Shown piece after piece: positions 24,482-55,800 of a DNA stretch of 60,307 nucleotides. Below the pieces are notes generated by a model. The model ran no database searches, had not been told where the DNA came from, and saw nothing but the letters and a program-made list of their open reading frames with translations. Made by a program: the position numbers and the translations under genes. Numbering within the stretch: position 1 is the stretch's first letter; each line of letters starts with the position of its first letter. The DNA is from an uncultured virus (IMG/VR IMGVR_UViG_3300006620_000021) (taxonomy: Duplodnaviria; Heunggongvirae; Uroviricota; Caudoviricetes): IMG/VR virus record IMGVR_UViG_3300006620_000021. One strand, written 5' to 3'.

Positions 24482-25057
24482 TTAATCCTCCAAATAATTT
24501 TTAAAAATTTCTAATGCACTATCCCAATGAATAAATTGGTGTCTCTGATTTACTGGAACAAAACAAAGAGTCCATCTTCCAAATGGTGTTGGGTTAGTTG
24601 TCCCATGAAGAACACCAACGTTCACCAAACTAGGACGATTTGTATTTGCTTCGTACAGAAGTTCACAATCTTCTTCATTTGCCCAAAGATTATCATGATG
24701 TTCAGTGGTGTATTCACCATACCCATTCATCTTTTTTCTAAAAGTTTTATCAGACTTCCACCATTGTATCATACCTTCTTCTGGACCCCAAGTAATATTA
24801 ATCTTGGCATGATTTGTATACATACCATGATCAGTATGAATTGGAATCTTAGAGAATGGTGGTGTATAAAATAGTTCCTTCAACATCAATACTAATCCAA
24901 GATCATCCATGAAACATTCCATTGGATAAAAAGGATAATCATTAATATAAAAATGCTTAACAGTATCACCCTGCTCTTTGAAGATTGGCAATGGTGATAT
25001 ATTAAATGGTAAATTTAAATACCTATGGTAACAATTAGTCTGGGTATCCATCATCAT
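24482..25057 (-). CDS. hypothetical protein, cupin/2OG-oxygenase-like
   Basis: IHTD...VNVGVLH...RW.L motif; start reassigned. Confidence 0.5.
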   Translation of the reverse strand: MMMDTQTNCYHRYLNLPFNISPLPIFKEQGDTVKHFYINDYPFYPMECFMDDLGLVLMLKELFYTPPFSKIPIHTDHGMYTNHAKINITWGPEEGMIQWWKSDKTFRKKMNGYGEYTTEHHDNLWANEEDCELLYEANTNRPSLVNVGVLHGTTNPTPFGRWTLCFVPVNQRHQFIHWDSALEIFKNYLED

Positions 25058-25226
25058 CGTTAAAAATTTCGTCGTAGTCCGAGACAGGTGCATAATATGA
25101 TGCAGGATCATCAAAGTTCTCCCGCCTATCAGTATATGCACTAATGTCAGAGTAAACTTCGGTATCAATCTCTTGGACTAATTCTCTTAGTTTACAAACC
25201 AATTCCTTCAGTTTACCTCTGTCCAT
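25035..25226 (-). CDS. conserved cyanophage hypothetical protein
   Basis: MDRGKLKELV...EVYSD...DYDEIFNDDDGYPD; preceded by a sigma70 promoter. Confidence 0.65.
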   Translation of the reverse strand: MDRGKLKELVCKLRELVQEIDTEVYSDISAYTDRRENFDDPASYYAPVSDYDEIFNDDDGYPD

Positions 25227-25248
25227 ACCTAGTAATAGTACTGCTTTG

Positions 25249-25277
25249 ATTATAGTACAAAAAAAGAGGGGTCGCAA
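25249..25277 (-). promoter_or_regulatory. sigma70-like promoter overlapping the terminator
   Basis: TTGCGA-N17-TATAAT. Confidence 0.6.
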
Positions 25278-25285
25278 CCCCTCTT
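25259..25285 (-). terminator. intrinsic terminator closing the DUF4278 operon
   Basis: 9-bp stem AAGAGGGGT/ACCCCTCTT with 4-nt loop and T tract. Confidence 0.8.
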
Positions 25286-25287
25286 GT

Positions 25288-25380
25288 TTATTTTTGGAGG
25301 AGAAGTATCTCCCCGTATAGTAACGACATGAATGCAACACATGCAAGAGAACTAAGTCCCACAACTTGTAATGCTTCCAT
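25288..25380 (-). CDS. 30-aa hydrophobic peptide (not in ORF track)
   Basis: MEALQVVGLSSLACVAFMSLLYGEILLLQK; fills the gap between DUF4278 and the terminator. Confidence 0.55.
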   Translation of the reverse strand: MEALQVVGLSSLACVAFMSLLYGEILLLQK

Positions 25381-25553: not shown

Positions 25554-25588
25554 GAGTTTGTCTCCTAAAGGATGAGGTTTTTAATCCC

Positions 25589-25774
25589 CGTTCCTTCAGT
25601 CGTGTGCGTCCCAATACCACTGACAATCTGGAGCTGAATCCTTGAGGGTATCAACCAACTCAACCTTAACTTGATTGCTAAGGTTTTCGTTTGACTCAAT
25701 CTTTAGCATAATGCTATCAGTTTGAGCACAGGTCAGTGTCGAGTAAAATAGTAATTCTAGCATTGAGATGAACG
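25589..25774 (-). ncRNA. glutamine riboswitch-like aptamer 2 (Downstream-peptide/glutamine-II type) with an ORF in the P2 loop
   Basis: CGTTCA-TCTCAATGC...GTATTGGGA-CGCACACGACTGAAGGAACG directly upstream of the DUF4278 RBS. Confidence 0.72.
25596..25763 (-). CDS. 55-aa two-Cys small protein nested in aptamer 2 (not in ORF track)
   Basis: MLELLFYSTLTCAQTDSIMLKIESNENLSNQVKVELVDTLKDSAPDCQWYWDAHD; paralog of 25805..26005. Confidence 0.7.
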   Translation of the reverse strand: MLELLFYSTLTCAQTDSIMLKIESNENLSNQVKVELVDTLKDSAPDCQWYWDAHD

Positions 25775-25777
25775 CTC

Positions 25778-26015
25778 CGTTCCGCGACNNGACTTACTTG
25801 CGTCTTATGTATACGTCCCATCGCATTGACCTTCCACCTTCGATTTAAGATAACCTATAAGGTTATACTTTGCACGACGATCCAAGTTATCATCCATAAG
25901 GATTTCAACTCGTCTCTGGAGGAACCTTTCACACGACATGTGCCACCCATAGGGGGAACCGTCTTGATGATGGGCAAGGGTCAATGCCAGTAGGATGCTC
26001 AACATAAGATGAACG
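25778..26015 (-). ncRNA. glutamine riboswitch-like aptamer 1 (glnA/Downstream-peptide family) with an ORF in the P2 loop
   Basis: CGTTCA-TCTTATGT...ACATAAGA-CGCAAGTAAGTC(nn)GTCGCGGAACG; contains a 2-N gap. Confidence 0.68.
25805..26005 (-). CDS. 66-aa two-Cys small protein nested in aptamer 1
   Basis: MLSILLALTLAHHQDGSPYGWHMSCERF...GQCDGTYT; start reassigned to the first ATG after the promoter. Confidence 0.7.
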   Translation of the reverse strand: MLSILLALTLAHHQDGSPYGWHMSCERFLQRRVEILMDDNLDRRAKYNLIGYLKSKVEGQCDGTYT

Positions 26016-52877: not shown

Positions 52878-55800
52878 TTAAATAACTACAATTCTTGTAG
52901 GTTGCGGATCTCTGAACTCAATATATCTGGACTTAGTATCCTTAGTTCCCTTCTCAATATCAATGAGACCTTCACCGATAACAGGTGCTGGAGTGAAGGA
53001 CTCTGCTTTTGTTCCAGTAAATCTGACCTTCGGACCTTCTGGGAAGGTTCTGAGTCTGAAGACTGTAATACCTCTGGAGATATCTCCAGGAATTCCATCG
53101 TTGCTGAGACCAATTCTGACCTGACCAACTGCCAGATTCGCAGCAGTAAACTTGACATCTCCACCAACTGTATCTCCACCGATGGTGAAGAGAGTGAACT
53201 TGACTTCGACGTTGGATACACTCTCTGCTCCACCAACAAATCCAGTAAGTGTGCCAGAACCAATCTCGACATTGGTCTCGCTCTCTGCGCCGTTGCCAAC
53301 AACGGTAAAGACATTTCTGAGTCCGCGAGGAACGATGACTCTCGCCTCGGTGGTGCTGGAGAATCCGAAGATCGAACCTGTACCCGCATGTGCGAAGGTT
53401 GATCTCTCGACCAGACTGCCATCGACTTCCAGACCAGGAACTGCGGTTCCTTCTGCTGCAATAGATGCTTTCTCGACTGCAGTACCAGTAACGCTGAAGA
53501 GTGTAGTACGCTCTGGATAATCGAAGACCTTCGCTTCGGTTGTGCTGGAGAATCCAAAGAGTCCACCAGTTGTAACGTGTGGTGCAGGAGTAGTACGCTC
53601 TTGAAGATTGCCAGCGAAGGAGAACAGTGCCTGCTTCTCTTCTGCAACTGCAGTTGCTTCGGTCGAGGAAGCAAATCCGAAGAGAGATCCAAACGCGACC
53701 ATGGAATTGGTCTCGCTCTCTGCAGCATTGCCCTCGAAGGAGAAGAGAGTAGTCTTGTCGATTGGATTGAAGACTGCTGCTTCTGCTGCACCACTGAATC
53801 CATAGAGTCTTCCAGTTCCAACTTCTGGTGCAGGAGTGAAGGACTCGTCCAGTTCGCCATGAACTTCGACAGGTTGCAGACCAGTCTCGGTAACTTTGAG
53901 TTGGAAGGTAGTGAATGCCTCGTCTGGCAGGAATCTTGCCTGAACAAACTTCTGCTCGGAGAACGTGAGCAGAGGAGTATCGACCTGACCTGTAAATGTG
54001 AACAGAGTAAAGTCGTCTGGTGGATTTGAACCAACTGCTTCTGCAGCACCACCAATTCCACCAAATAGTTTTCCAAATCCTTCTGGAATGAATGGAGTGA
54101 AGGATTCTGGTTCGATTCTGACACCAGAATCGCGGACGAAGATAGCACCAGCACCAGTGTGCTTGGGCAGAACAAAGATCTTGGGTGATCCTCTGAGCAG
54201 CAGGTGGGTAGTCTCGACTGTCTCCCAAGCGAAGCTGAACTGAACGTCTGTAACAGCGCCAGAGAATCCGAAGAGTGCCTTCTTCTTCGCAGGTACAAAT
54301 GTTGCTGCCTCGGTAAAGGAGACGAACGAGAAGATAGATCCGCGACCAGCAGGAATCCATGGGGTGAAGGATTCTGGTTCGATTCTGACACCAGAATCGC
54401 GAATAAAGATGGTGCCACTTCCAGTCTCTTCTTGACCAGTTGCCTCTCCAGATCCCTCGATACCAAAGAGAGATCCACTTGCTGCCCAAGCAGCGGTGAA
54501 CTTGAGTTCGGATTCTTGCTCTTCAACTGCACTGATGCGAAGACCACCATCGATTGCAAACAGAGGATGTACCTTCGCAGGTACAAATGCAACTCTCTCA
54601 CTGAAGGTAACGTAACTGAAGAGAGAACCAGATCCAATCTCAGTTGCAGGAGTCGTAGACTCTGCAGCGTTGCCTTCAAATCCAAACAGTGCTTTCTTCT
54701 TACCAGGTACGAAGGTGACTGCCTCTGCAGCACCAACGATAGATCCAAGAGAACCAGAACCAGTGTAGTTACCCTTACCAAAGGACTCAGTAAAGGTGCT
54801 AACGAACTGAAGTTGCAGACCTTGAGGTTCAAGACAATCGTCTGGATGAAGATCGCCGTAATCTTCGTGATTGTACTGATAGTATTGATTTACATAACCG
54901 TAATCGATCGCGTTTGGTACTCTTCCAAACTCAGATACAACTTCATTAGCAAGAGAACTGACAGGATCATTGAGATATCCAAGCAGTGCTGGAGATTCTT
55001 CGACGTTGTAGACAGACTCACTGACGAATCCATAATCATCACCTTCACATGTGCCGAAGGAAGAATCCTGATTGTAATGGAAGGTGATGGACTCAGCAGC
55101 ACCATCAAATCCACCAATAGATCCAGATCCAACTTCACTAAAGATTCTACTCTCAACAACTTCACCATGTATGGAGAAGATACCCTCATTGATAGTAGTA
55201 ATTCTAATCGATACTGAAGTAGAATCAAATCCGAAGAGTGTTCCAACTCCGTCGTAGTTGCCCTTACCAAACTTCTCAATGAGTTCACCTTCAAAGTTGA
55301 AGAGTGCTCTATCATCTTTAGCAGGTACGAATGCAACGGCTTCCGCTCCTCCAGATAGAGTGGGTAGATTACCAGTACCAACCCAATCTCTCGCTCTGCT
55401 GAAGGTTGTGTCGCCTCTGAGTTTAACAAGGTCACCCTTAGAGGTGAACTTAGGCAGAACGTATACCTTACCAGTACCAAGAACTCTAATGTGACCGTGG
55501 TCAGCATTACCAATAAAGTTTCTAACTCTTGGAGTCTCAGTAGAACTATGAAGTCTACCAAGTCCGAAGGGAAGTCTTGTTGTGGTAGGAGCAAGTGTAC
55601 CGAAGTCTTCTGTCTGCCAAGGATAGTAGATCTCATCGTAACTTACATCACCATAGTCTTCTGCAACGGTGATTGTATCAGTGATGAATCCATAATCAAT
55701 AGACTCAACATTGACAACAGAAGACAGGTTGTATGCAAATGCTCTTCTATTGATCTCTTTGTTGTTGAAGGAGAAGACTCTATCAACCTGATTGAAGATG

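Follow-up and report, generated by a model that had tools for sequence, protein, structure and literature searches.

Two small cyanophage genes lie in the hairpins of a probable nested double glutamine-riboswitch-type aptamer

Introduction

Can an RNA whose hairpin loops hold whole protein genes still be a riboswitch, and if so, how is it built? The question is raised by a locus in a 60,307-nucleotide (nt) stretch of DNA from an uncultured virus of the Caudoviricetes (IMG/VR record IMGVR_UViG_3300006620_000021; the whole stretch is called the window here). On its minus strand, at positions 26015-25589, the glutamine-riboswitch core (CGUUCA, then a hairpin, CGCA, and GGAACG-G) occurs twice in succession, and a small open reading frame (ORF) starts in each hairpin. 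A first-pass annotation, made from the letters of the window, had described them as two tandem glutamine-riboswitch-like aptamers with a gene inside each hairpin loop and a possible pseudoknot between them. Its observation is real, with every coordinate correct when the minus strand is read, and its interpretation is partly supported. All features below are on the minus strand, and (1) and (2) mark the first and second copy of a motif.

The answer that we favor, with a probability of roughly two in three, is that positions 26052-25264, a promoter-to-terminator stretch of a T4-like cyanophage, act as one unit whose RNA starts with a nested double aptamer of the glutamine-I (glnA) type, the hairpins of which enclose genes resembling gp196 and gp197 of phage Syn9, and that this RNA controls translation. 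The outer core would comprise CGUUC(1), hairpin 1, CGCA(1), a loop E motif continued by a shared helix (AGUA-AGUCG with CGACU-GAA), and GGAACG(2)-G. The inner core would be circularly permuted: a 3-nt loop would connect GGAACG(1)-G to its partner CGUUC(2), and hairpin 2, CGCA(2), and the same shared helix would follow.

Results and discussion

Closing stems and nested genes

Relatives of the first nested protein were found to be encoded by 335 viral contigs, and the best 80 of these 335 were combined with the window and three phage records. The full two-gene layout was present in 78 of the 84 candidates; the six outside the pattern include loci visibly too short for the whole element (e.g., L027, L039, and L090). 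Removal of duplicates left 66 distinct sequences, which were aligned (alignment A1).

In the window, CGTTCA stands at 26015-26010 and 25774-25769 and GGAACG at 25783-25778 and 25594-25589. Hairpin 1 opens with the arm UCUUAUGU (DNA TCTTATGT, 26009-26002), which holds the AUG of nested gene 1 (26005-26003), and closes with ACAUAAGA (DNA ACATAAGA, 25810-25803), which holds its UAA; the perfect complementarity that had been reported for these arms, with ATG and TAA inside, is exact. Hairpin 2 opens with UCUCAAUGC (DNA TCTCAATGC, 25768-25760), which holds the AUG of nested gene 2 (25763-25761), and its 3' arm GUAUUGGGA (DNA GTATTGGGA, 25617-25609) runs straight into CGCA(2) of the inner core, the two together spanning 25617-25605. 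These arms also pair as described, with two G-U pairs and the ATG inside, and G-U pairs on the minus strand point to pairing in RNA rather than in DNA.

Covariation of the arms had been suspected from the two copies in the window; checked on homologous cyanophage loci, both closing stems covary across the 66 distinct sequences. The nested model leaves 91.7% of alignment cells paired, against 27.5 to 48.4% when partners are slid by 1 to 3 columns, and its covariation score is reached by none of 500 shuffles; since the aligned sequences are related, such shuffle and Fisher figures overstate independence. The hairpin 1 pair beside the stop codon is UA in 36 loci, CG in 26, and UG in 1, and the next pair is CG in 23, UA in 19, and unpaired in 24. 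Because these pairs covary, the type of stop codon of gene 1 (UAA, UGA, or UAG) tracks the two bases before its AUG. Whole arms are exchanged in concert as well, as in the variants that pair TCACTACTATG with CATAGAAGTGA and TCTCAC with GTGAGA, and three of the first four pairs of hairpin 2 are changed on both sides (UA 61 and CG 5; CG 64, UA 1, and UG 1; CG 62, UA 2, and UG 2). Hairpin 1 of the window folds at -74.4 kcal/mol, against -54.7 ± 4.1 for shuffled sequences (z = -4.79; 0 of 200 as good), and hairpin 2 at -50.5 kcal/mol (z = -3.47; 1 of 200 shuffles as good); both folds are closed by the arms that the first-pass annotation had named. The stem of hairpin 1 is lengthened by gene 1 itself, whose first and last ~12 codons pair in 84 to 92% of A1 cells, with three pairs changed on both sides, and these gene-interior counts lean toward the structure because it was derived from one row of the alignment.

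We also observed that synonymous sites at the ends of gene 1 are unusually conserved. The ends pair (for example, GCAUUGACC with GGUCAAUGC), and the segments concerned are window positions 25962-26005 and 25805-25850 (A1 columns 35-54 with 202-223). Changes there are mostly wobble-compatible, and the coding sequence is therefore constrained by RNA structure.

Nested gene 1 (26005-25805, 66 amino acids [aa]) is a homologue of Syn9 gp196 in phrog_6471, and nested gene 2 (25763-25596, 55 aa) is a homologue of Syn9 gp197 in phrog_504; PHROGs gives the function of both families as unknown. The Syn9 annotation names the three ORFs of the locus gp196, gp197, and gp198, and in phages S-CAM1 and S-TIM5 they are hypothetical proteins. 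Both nested frames are open in all 66 distinct loci, gene 1 with 66 aa in 62, 79 aa in 3, and 67 aa in 1, and gene 2 with 52 to 57 aa. With ratios of nonsynonymous to synonymous polymorphism (pN/pS) of 0.22 for gene 1 and 0.47 for gene 2, both ORFs are under purifying selection, and entropy at the three codon positions is 0.37, 0.20, and 0.83 in gene 1 and 1.07, 0.59, and 1.35 in gene 2. The claim that real genes lie within the hairpin loops is thus upheld by the covarying stems together with the coding signal.

Strict enclosure, which the first-pass annotation had claimed for both genes, does not hold for the second. Its final five codons (W-D-A-H/N-D, H in the window, followed by the stop) pass through the 3' arm of hairpin 2, CGCA(2), and the shared helix, and its stop is the TGA within CGACTGA, as had been noted. 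In three viral contigs (L029, L052, and L059) the 3' arm of hairpin 1 has no stop codon, and gene 1 runs 13 codons further (79 aa), through CGCA, loop E, and the inner hairpin.

Relation to known glutamine riboswitches

The assignment to glutamine-riboswitch-type RNA stands. In the glutamine-II wild type, CGUUCA is followed by the P1 hairpin (UCCA..UGGA), CGCA, and, farther on, GGAACGG, and the ligand pocket is made of the CGUUC:GAACG helix, the G and C of CGCA, and the G after GGAACG (PMC6698751). Every core nucleotide named in that account is present twice in the window, and the equivalents of pocket positions C1, G2, G18, C19, C39, G40, and G41 are invariant in both cores of 66 gene-bearing and 23 compact elements, the latter being related phage loci with minihairpins of 9 to 20 nt. 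CGUUCA, CGCA, and GGAACGG also agree with the consensus of Rfam family RF01739 (glnA RNA, or glutamine-I).

The Downstream-peptide, or glutamine-II, fold (RF01704) had been proposed beside glnA RNA and is not what the locus has, in that no strand after GGAACGG pairs with a strand after CGCA. The P2 helix of glutamine-II is absent from both units when complementarity is judged by eye, and RF01704 is unmatched in the window. The name P2 that had been given to the gene-bearing hairpin also falls away: in the nomenclature of PMC6698751 this hairpin is P1, and the helix that had been called P1 is the PK helix, which is P1 of glutamine-I. What the locus shares with RF01739 is the CGUUC:GAACG P1 with an unpaired A (both strands present twice and invariant), a hairpin directly after CGUUCA followed by CGC/CGG (both stems covary), and a third helix with loop E (AAGUA opposite GAA) leading into GGAACG, the last formed between the units and not as a hairpin.

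Compact relatives were collected by scanning viral contigs for CGTTCA, 6 to 36 nt, GACGCA, 4 to 30 nt, and GGAACGG, which gave at least 120 loci. Rfam searches of 20 of these yielded 14 matches at or above the gathering score, on 13 loci, and the matches include single glutamine-II and single glutamine-I aptamers. In two compact doubles, L116 (43.6 bits) and L165 (38.4 bits; gathering score, 35), the RF01739 alignment spans both units and reads CGUUCA, hairpin, CGCAAGUA-AGU, 38 nt, ACU-GAAGGAACG. The first linker of the compact doubles is the same as that of the window (CGCA-AGTAAGTCGC-GGAACG); the second is CGCA-AACGACTGAA-GGAACG, for which the window has CACGACTGAA, a variant also found in compact double L145.

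A divergent subclass of compact doubles (L117, L156, L174, and L175) was also seen, in which hairpin 2 reads TTCGCTATT-CGCA-AATAGCGAA, with a decoy CGCA in its loop, and the shared helix is GGACGG:CCGCCC with an A-C mismatch.

The loop lengths of the gene-bearing element, 190 and 140 nt, are far outside the usual range of the RF01739 family as judged from Rfam alignments. Three related loci gave terminator-like and chance matches only in Rfam, and RF01704 and RF01739 found nothing above their cut-offs across three whole related phage genomes. Below the cut-off, one RF01739 match of 12.1 bits covers the 3' half of unit 1 in S-CAM1, and weak RF01704 matches (10.7 bits or less) in the three related phage genomes fall elsewhere than the element.

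One core nested in the other

The shared helix is interrupted in the window by two undetermined letters (NN). The linker between CGCA(1) and GGAACG(1) reads AGTAAGTC-NN-GTCGC, with GAG after GGAACG; that between CGCA(2) and GGAACG(2) reads CACGACTGAA, with GGGG after GGAACG(2). Relatives have AAGTAAGTCGCGGAACG at the NN site, none with extra letters, and the five letters at 25786-25790 (NNGTC) are absent from three public contigs: X1, a 1926-nt DNA contig otherwise identical to the window; X2, one contig of a second DNA run; and X17, one RNA-library contig. The NN and the repeated GTC are a 5-letter assembly artefact in the most conserved part of the element, and because of this AGTCG is contiguous. 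The 5' strand of the shared helix (25794-25785, AGUC..G in the window) is thus truly AGUCG, as relatives, public contigs, and covariation in compact relatives agree. Its complementarity to CGACT, which had been proposed across the gap, is borne out, and the helix covaries in the compact relatives.

On topology the first-pass annotation is not supported: it had two independent side-by-side aptamers joined by a pseudoknot, and the spanning Rfam alignments, RNAalifold, and pair probabilities favor nesting. Unit 1 carries the AGUA half of loop E alone and unit 2 the GAA half alone. CGCA(1), with the triple-forming G and the linchpin C of the outer core, is followed by AGUA, the 5' half of loop E (together 25802-25795; invariant, with roles assigned by comparison with PMC6698751 and the RF01739 consensus), and CGACU (25602-25598), the 3' strand of the shared helix, is followed by GAA, the 3' half of loop E (together 25602-25595; from the Rfam alignment and covariation). 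With the artefact removed, the loop-E helix of the window is AGUA-AGUCG (25798-25785) opposite CGACU-GAA (25602-25595). Because the AGUCG:CGACU helix and the AGUA/GAA motif join the units, the glutamine-I three-way junction closes only if CGUUC(1) pairs with GAACG(2), and GGAACG(1)-GAG-CGUUC(2) is therefore left as an inner hairpin. This inner hairpin, hairpin 2, CGCA(2), and the shared helix form a second junction, circularly permuted.

The 5' strand of the outer P1 is CGUUC-A(1) with the junction A (26015-26010; invariant in 66 of 66 gene-bearing and 23 of 23 compact elements), and its 3' strand is GGAACG(2)-G with the outer linchpin G (25594-25588; invariant). Their pairing is seen in the Rfam alignment of compact relatives, by RNAalifold, and in folds of relatives. 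The inner P1 hairpin lies at 25783-25770, and the G directly 3' of GGAACG, the inner linchpin, is invariant.

Applied to the 23 distinct compact doubles (alignment A2), RNAalifold predicts exactly the nested fold, inner P1 included. With the shared helix, the nested model leaves 95.7% of cells paired (slid controls, 33.5 to 56.6%), its covariation score is reached by 0 of 500 shuffles, and four pairs of the shared helix are changed on both sides (AU 16, GC 5, and GU 2; UA 8 and CG 1; GC 19, AU 1, and GU 1; AU 5, UA 5, and GC 1). In five full-length gene-bearing relatives, ViennaRNA pair probabilities are 0.82 to 0.87 for the outer P1, 0.95 to 0.96 for hairpin 1, 0.86 to 0.91 for hairpin 2, 0.76 to 0.97 for the inner P1, and 0.31 to 0.52 for the shared helix, and the five-helix structure lies within 0.3 kcal/mol of the minimum.

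Two independent aptamers, formed by CGUUC(1):GAACG(1) and CGUUC(2):GAACG(2), with a gene in each hairpin and AGUCG:CGACU as a pseudoknot link, would preserve the canonical order of CGUUCA, hairpin, CGCA, and GGAACG-G in each unit and would suit the term "tandem" that reviews use for glnA aptamers (PMC10265488 and PMC2864571, of which the former notes that even triple arrangements occur and that tandem ones are frequent). The P1 strands are compatible with these pairings, and as they never vary and do not differ between the units, covariation has no power to tell the two assignments of P1 apart. Rfam, moreover, aligned unit 2 alone in two of the five compact doubles scanned, just above threshold (L097, 36.7 bits; L125, 35.3 bits). 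Against this, the spanning alignments score higher, RNAalifold picks the nested fold, the loop-E halves are split between the units, and the covarying helix closes a three-way junction only with CGUUC(1):GAACG(2). The side-by-side pairings have probabilities of 0.001 to 0.067 in the five relatives, a comparison in which ViennaRNA cannot score pseudoknots and so does not score this alternative fairly. The local GGAACG-GAG-CGUUC hairpin would also form within 14 nt during transcription, with CGUUC(1) 230 nt off. We regard two side-by-side aptamers as quite improbable.

Besides the silence of covariation on P1, the unit 2 alignments, the scoring of pseudoknots, and the relatedness of the aligned loci, several further results weigh against a nested double glutamine-I aptamer. 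As the first-pass annotation had foreseen, covariance models miss the element: Rfam has no match in the window at the gathering score and, at E values up to 10 (751 nt), returns only the unrelated low scores TMV_UPD-PK3 and mir-2767. Nor was there an Rfam match in compact double L161 or in the five scanned loci with a gene in a hairpin (L099, L111, L122, L135, and L157). Our own covariance model, R1, built from compact doubles, missed the element with default filters, its only match being one of 11 bits at 54447-54505 (E = 2) that we take as chance; with filters off it recovered the central core only (14.9 bits, E = 0.002), the remainder being forced onto ORF sequence, and on 14 relatives it scored 15.9 to 35.8 bits with the 3' parts likewise forced. 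Pairs 6 and 7 of hairpin 2 hold in only 42% of cells, and the interior of gene 2 has little conserved structure. The inner core, a putative glutamine binder, is without loop E and its P1 is closed by 3 nt only. The transcript start discussed below is a prediction. Sequence comparison by itself shows the covarying helices, the coding nature of the nested ORFs, and the covarying alternative helix at the downstream gene; glutamine binding and regulation by this RNA we infer.

Promoter, downstream gene, and switch helix

The unit would begin at a sigma-70-like promoter, TTGACT-17-TATACT (26052-26024), which agrees with consensus at 10 of 12 positions; TTGACN-N16-18-TANNNT, ending 4 to 12 nt before CGTTCA, occurs in 81 of 120 distinct stretches upstream of double elements. 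The transcript start is predicted at about 26018-26016, which would place CGUUCA(1) at the 5' end of the transcript. Eight nt upstream of the -35 hexamer stands a GTA-N8-TAC box, GTATCACATGTTAC (26074-26061), which we take to be a candidate site of the NtcA-type consensus. The motif is found in 97 of the 120 upstream stretches (90 nt each), against 3.2 expected from shuffles, and mostly begins 52 to 61 nt before CGTTCA. In the window, the center of the box lies ~50 nt before the predicted start, which is not classical activator spacing.

Downstream of the element lies a gene of 55 aa (25553-25386), a homologue of Syn9 gp198 in phrog_545 (function unknown in PHROGs) with two YRG motifs. The first-pass annotation had called it a DUF4278 gene; a DUF4278-like (IF17-like) gene is indeed there, and its Pfam score is under the cut-off (20 bits versus 25.3). 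Of 24 homologues of this protein, 23 likewise match DUF4278 best among Pfam families, at 17.9 to 23.5 bits and so all below 25.3. A homologue scan of genome contigs with the DUF4278-like protein returned two unrelated bacterial loci and no cyanobacteria. The glutamine-synthetase inactivating factor IF17 includes DUF4278, and glutamine riboswitches of both types stand mostly in front of such genes (PMC6212724). Both types raise translation of DUF4278/IF17 genes, for which a helix has been proposed that occludes the ribosome-binding site until glutamine melts it (Klähn et al., PMC6212724).

A helix of the same kind can be drawn here. CUGAAGG (25599-25593), which runs from the end of the shared helix across the GAA of loop E into the opening GG of GGAACG(2), is complementary to CCUUUAG (25571-25565), which overlaps the ribosome-binding site AGGAG (25566-25562; the feature as a whole spans 25571-25562). 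Such a 7-mer partner beside the ribosome-binding site was found in 117 of 119 distinct elements, with at least 6 of 7 standard pairs in 108 of the 117. The pairing covaries: where the upstream strand is CUAAAGG the partner is U in 27 of 27, where it is CUGAAGG the partner is C in 48, U in 38, and another base in 4, and position 2 is U-A in 102, C-G in 6, and U-G in 9. These counts suggest that, within the expression platform, CUGAAGG:CCUUUAG is the alternative "switch" helix, consistent with the ON switch that has been published.

Gene cassettes and regulation

Genes occupy the two hairpins in every combination. Among 132 distinct double elements, a non-random sample, both hairpins are compact in 23 and both hold genes in 66; hairpin 1 is compact and hairpin 2 holds a gene in 35, and hairpin 1 holds a gene and hairpin 2 is compact in 8. 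The loop of the inner P1 starts with GAG, which creates a GGAG 10 nt before the AUG of gene 2 (25778-25775 in the window), in 91 of the 101 elements whose hairpin 2 encloses a gene and in none of the 31 where hairpin 2 is compact, counts that are uncorrected for relatedness. This GGAG, the presence of which tracks that of the gene, is the likely ribosome-binding site of nested gene 2.

Glutamine would stabilize both cores, and the downstream ribosome-binding site would be freed, an ON response like the one published for the gifB gene of the host. The start codon of gene 1, only 10 nt away from the 5' end predicted for the transcript, would then be sealed in a long stem helix, and the GGAG and AUG of gene 2 would be sealed inside the inner core. 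Translation of the nested genes might proceed mainly on nascent or glutamine-free RNA, with ribosomes starting gene 1 on nascent RNA before the 3' arm is transcribed, and ribosomes translating the nested genes would keep the sensor unfolded. Competition between folding and translation, which the first-pass annotation had proposed, gains support from the position of the start sites inside aptamer helices; sensing and nested-gene translation probably compete on one mRNA.

A tentative elaboration, which in our judgment falls short of even odds, is a reciprocal switch set by glutamine. On nascent RNA or at low glutamine, ribosomes on the nested genes would hold the sensor open; at high glutamine, the cores would lock, bury the nested start sites, and free the site of the IF17-like gene. 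If this were true, gene cassettes could dock in the hairpin loops in modular fashion, given that all four occupancy states are found, and the aptamer would integrate the level of its ligand with the state of translation. We know of no described riboswitch that senses the two jointly.

The four occupancy states would also be expected if the nested double aptamer served the downstream DUF4278-like gene only, the two genes being passengers inserted into permissive loops and translated without coupling to glutamine or folding. Ordinary glutamine riboswitches vary freely in hairpin length, and the one covarying expression-platform helix found serves the downstream gene. Passengers would not, however, be expected to have start codons within the closing stems in every gene-bearing element, a GGAG that sits in the inner core and is present only with gene 2, a type of stop codon in gene 1 that changes together with the bases ahead of the start codon, pairing between the ~12 codons at either end of that gene, and last five codons of gene 2 that are aptamer core. 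Interleaving this tight, an argument from anatomy, makes independence of genes and aptamer unlikely.

A conserved fold could also have ceased to sense glutamine and remain riboswitch-like by descent, as a structure that stabilizes the mRNA, directs RNase processing, or binds a protein. The inner core without loop E, hairpin loops of 150 to 200 nt, and scores below the Rfam thresholds are all compatible with this, but the ligand-contact nucleotides are invariant in both cores of the 66 gene-bearing and 23 compact elements while stems and loops are free to vary, and the host-like DUF4278 context and the helix blocking the ribosome-binding site are both kept. We consider such a non-sensing structure very improbable and retain the nested glutamine aptamer as the preferred reading.

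Comparison with other systems and distribution

In Salmonella, the mgtA leader RNA contains a short ORF, mgtL, whose translation sets the fold, and group I introns lodge homing-endonuclease ORFs in peripheral loops. Both resemble the present locus in having a reading frame inside a structured regulatory or catalytic RNA, a tolerant loop lodging the ORF; here, by contrast, the ligand-binding aptamer itself encloses ORFs for conserved proteins of 55 to 66 aa, and the start and stop codons fall in its closing stems. Two glycine aptamers stand next to each other and interact by tertiary contacts, whereas here one core is nested in the other and they share a Watson-Crick helix. Common to the tandem glycine riboswitch (mentioned in PMC10265488) and this element are two physically joined aptamers for one ligand in one leader.

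A close likeness is to glutamine-I (glnA RNA, RF01739; Synechocystis gifB/IF17 leader, PMC6212724), with its CGUUC:GAACG P1, junction A, hairpin closed by UC..GA, CGC, loop E (AAGUA/GAA), and GGAACG-G, its position before a DUF4278/IF17-like gene, and its ON switch, in which a short helix that masks the ribosome-binding site forms in competition with the aptamer's 3' part; compact phage relatives score above the Rfam threshold for it. The element differs in that the loop-E helix is closed by a second, circularly permuted core and not by a hairpin, in that both hairpin loops hold genes of 55 to 66 codons, in lying under every Rfam threshold in the window, and in being phage-borne. Glutamine-II (Downstream-peptide, RF01704; PMC6698751) has the identical pocket sequence (CGUUCA, hairpin, CGCA ... 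GGAACGG) and the same gene association, but its defining P2, between the strand after CGCA and the strand after GGAACGG, is missing here, where the strand pairs with the other unit. Single glutamine-II-type copies in the same viral collections precede MTVTYVYRG-type genes.

A 1001-nt region around the locus matches 402 phage records, all of Synechococcus or Prochlorococcus cyanophages. The 445-nt element matches 291 sequenced cyanophage records, at least 80% of it being covered in 32, and most others match in the second half only. Riboswitches are thought to be rare in phages, and the survey by McCown et al. (PMC5473149) gives only two glutamine aptamers in cyanophage genomes; set against this are the 291 records that match the element and the 335 viral contigs that encode a relative of gene 1. 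Because standard covariance-model scans return nothing, a common and ecologically important class of phage regulators would be hidden from routine annotation. As RNA architecture, the element would combine a pair of aptamers, one in circularly permuted form, that are nested by way of a common helix, with protein genes inside the ligand-binding domain and codons that double as aptamer core. In the literature searched, we found no account of genes that lie within a glutamine aptamer or of one glutamine aptamer nested in another, though an earlier drawing of nested pairs may exist. The locus suggests that cyanophages may read host glutamine, the nitrogen signal of the cell, to time three or four tiny proteins, one of which resembles the host glutamine-synthetase inactivating factor.

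Homing or HNH endonuclease genes adjoin or sit within the homologous locus in several phages (H25 Sf-CH5, H34 Sf-FS3, and S-TIM5, L003 1-363), which suggests that mobile elements insert into this region often.

Nested proteins and the end of the unit

AlphaFold models of both nested proteins are helical, with mean pLDDT of 75 for gene 1 and 84.5 for gene 2, and neither has a usable Foldseek match in PDB (best E values, 3.0 and 4.3). Invariant cysteines stand at C25 and C61 in the gene 1 protein and at C12 and C47 in the gene 2 protein, and both models have a Cys-helix-turn-helix-Cys layout with a cysteine spacing of 35 to 36 residues and the first Cys at a helix start. Common ancestry of the two proteins as paralogues was considered and finds no support from sequence profiles (hhalign probability, 0.43%; E = 0.14).

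RNA-library contigs X15 and X17 cover parts of 25771-25955 and 25586-25614, without transcript ends, and since the libraries may contain DNA they are no proof of transcription. Joints that skip ~151 to 153 nt over gene 2 in X2 and X17 are explained most simply by relatives whose gene 2 is too diverged to align at 88% likeness.

The stop of the DUF4278-like gene is overlapped by a short hydrophobic ORF (25389-25291, ...LLYGEILLLQK) with a probable start at ATG 25380, and an intrinsic-terminator-like hairpin (25285-25264) ends the unit. Similar unannotated hydrophobic frames occur in S-CAM1 (L002, ~1075-1170) and S-TIM5 (L003, ~1034-1127); Syn9 is without this frame, and its terminator follows directly. 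A second promoter-like site, TTGCGA-17-TATAAT, is found right after the terminator of the window (25277-25249), and after it an ORF in the 25035-25364 region has residues 47 to 109 that match phrog_878, a family whose function PHROGs gives as unknown.

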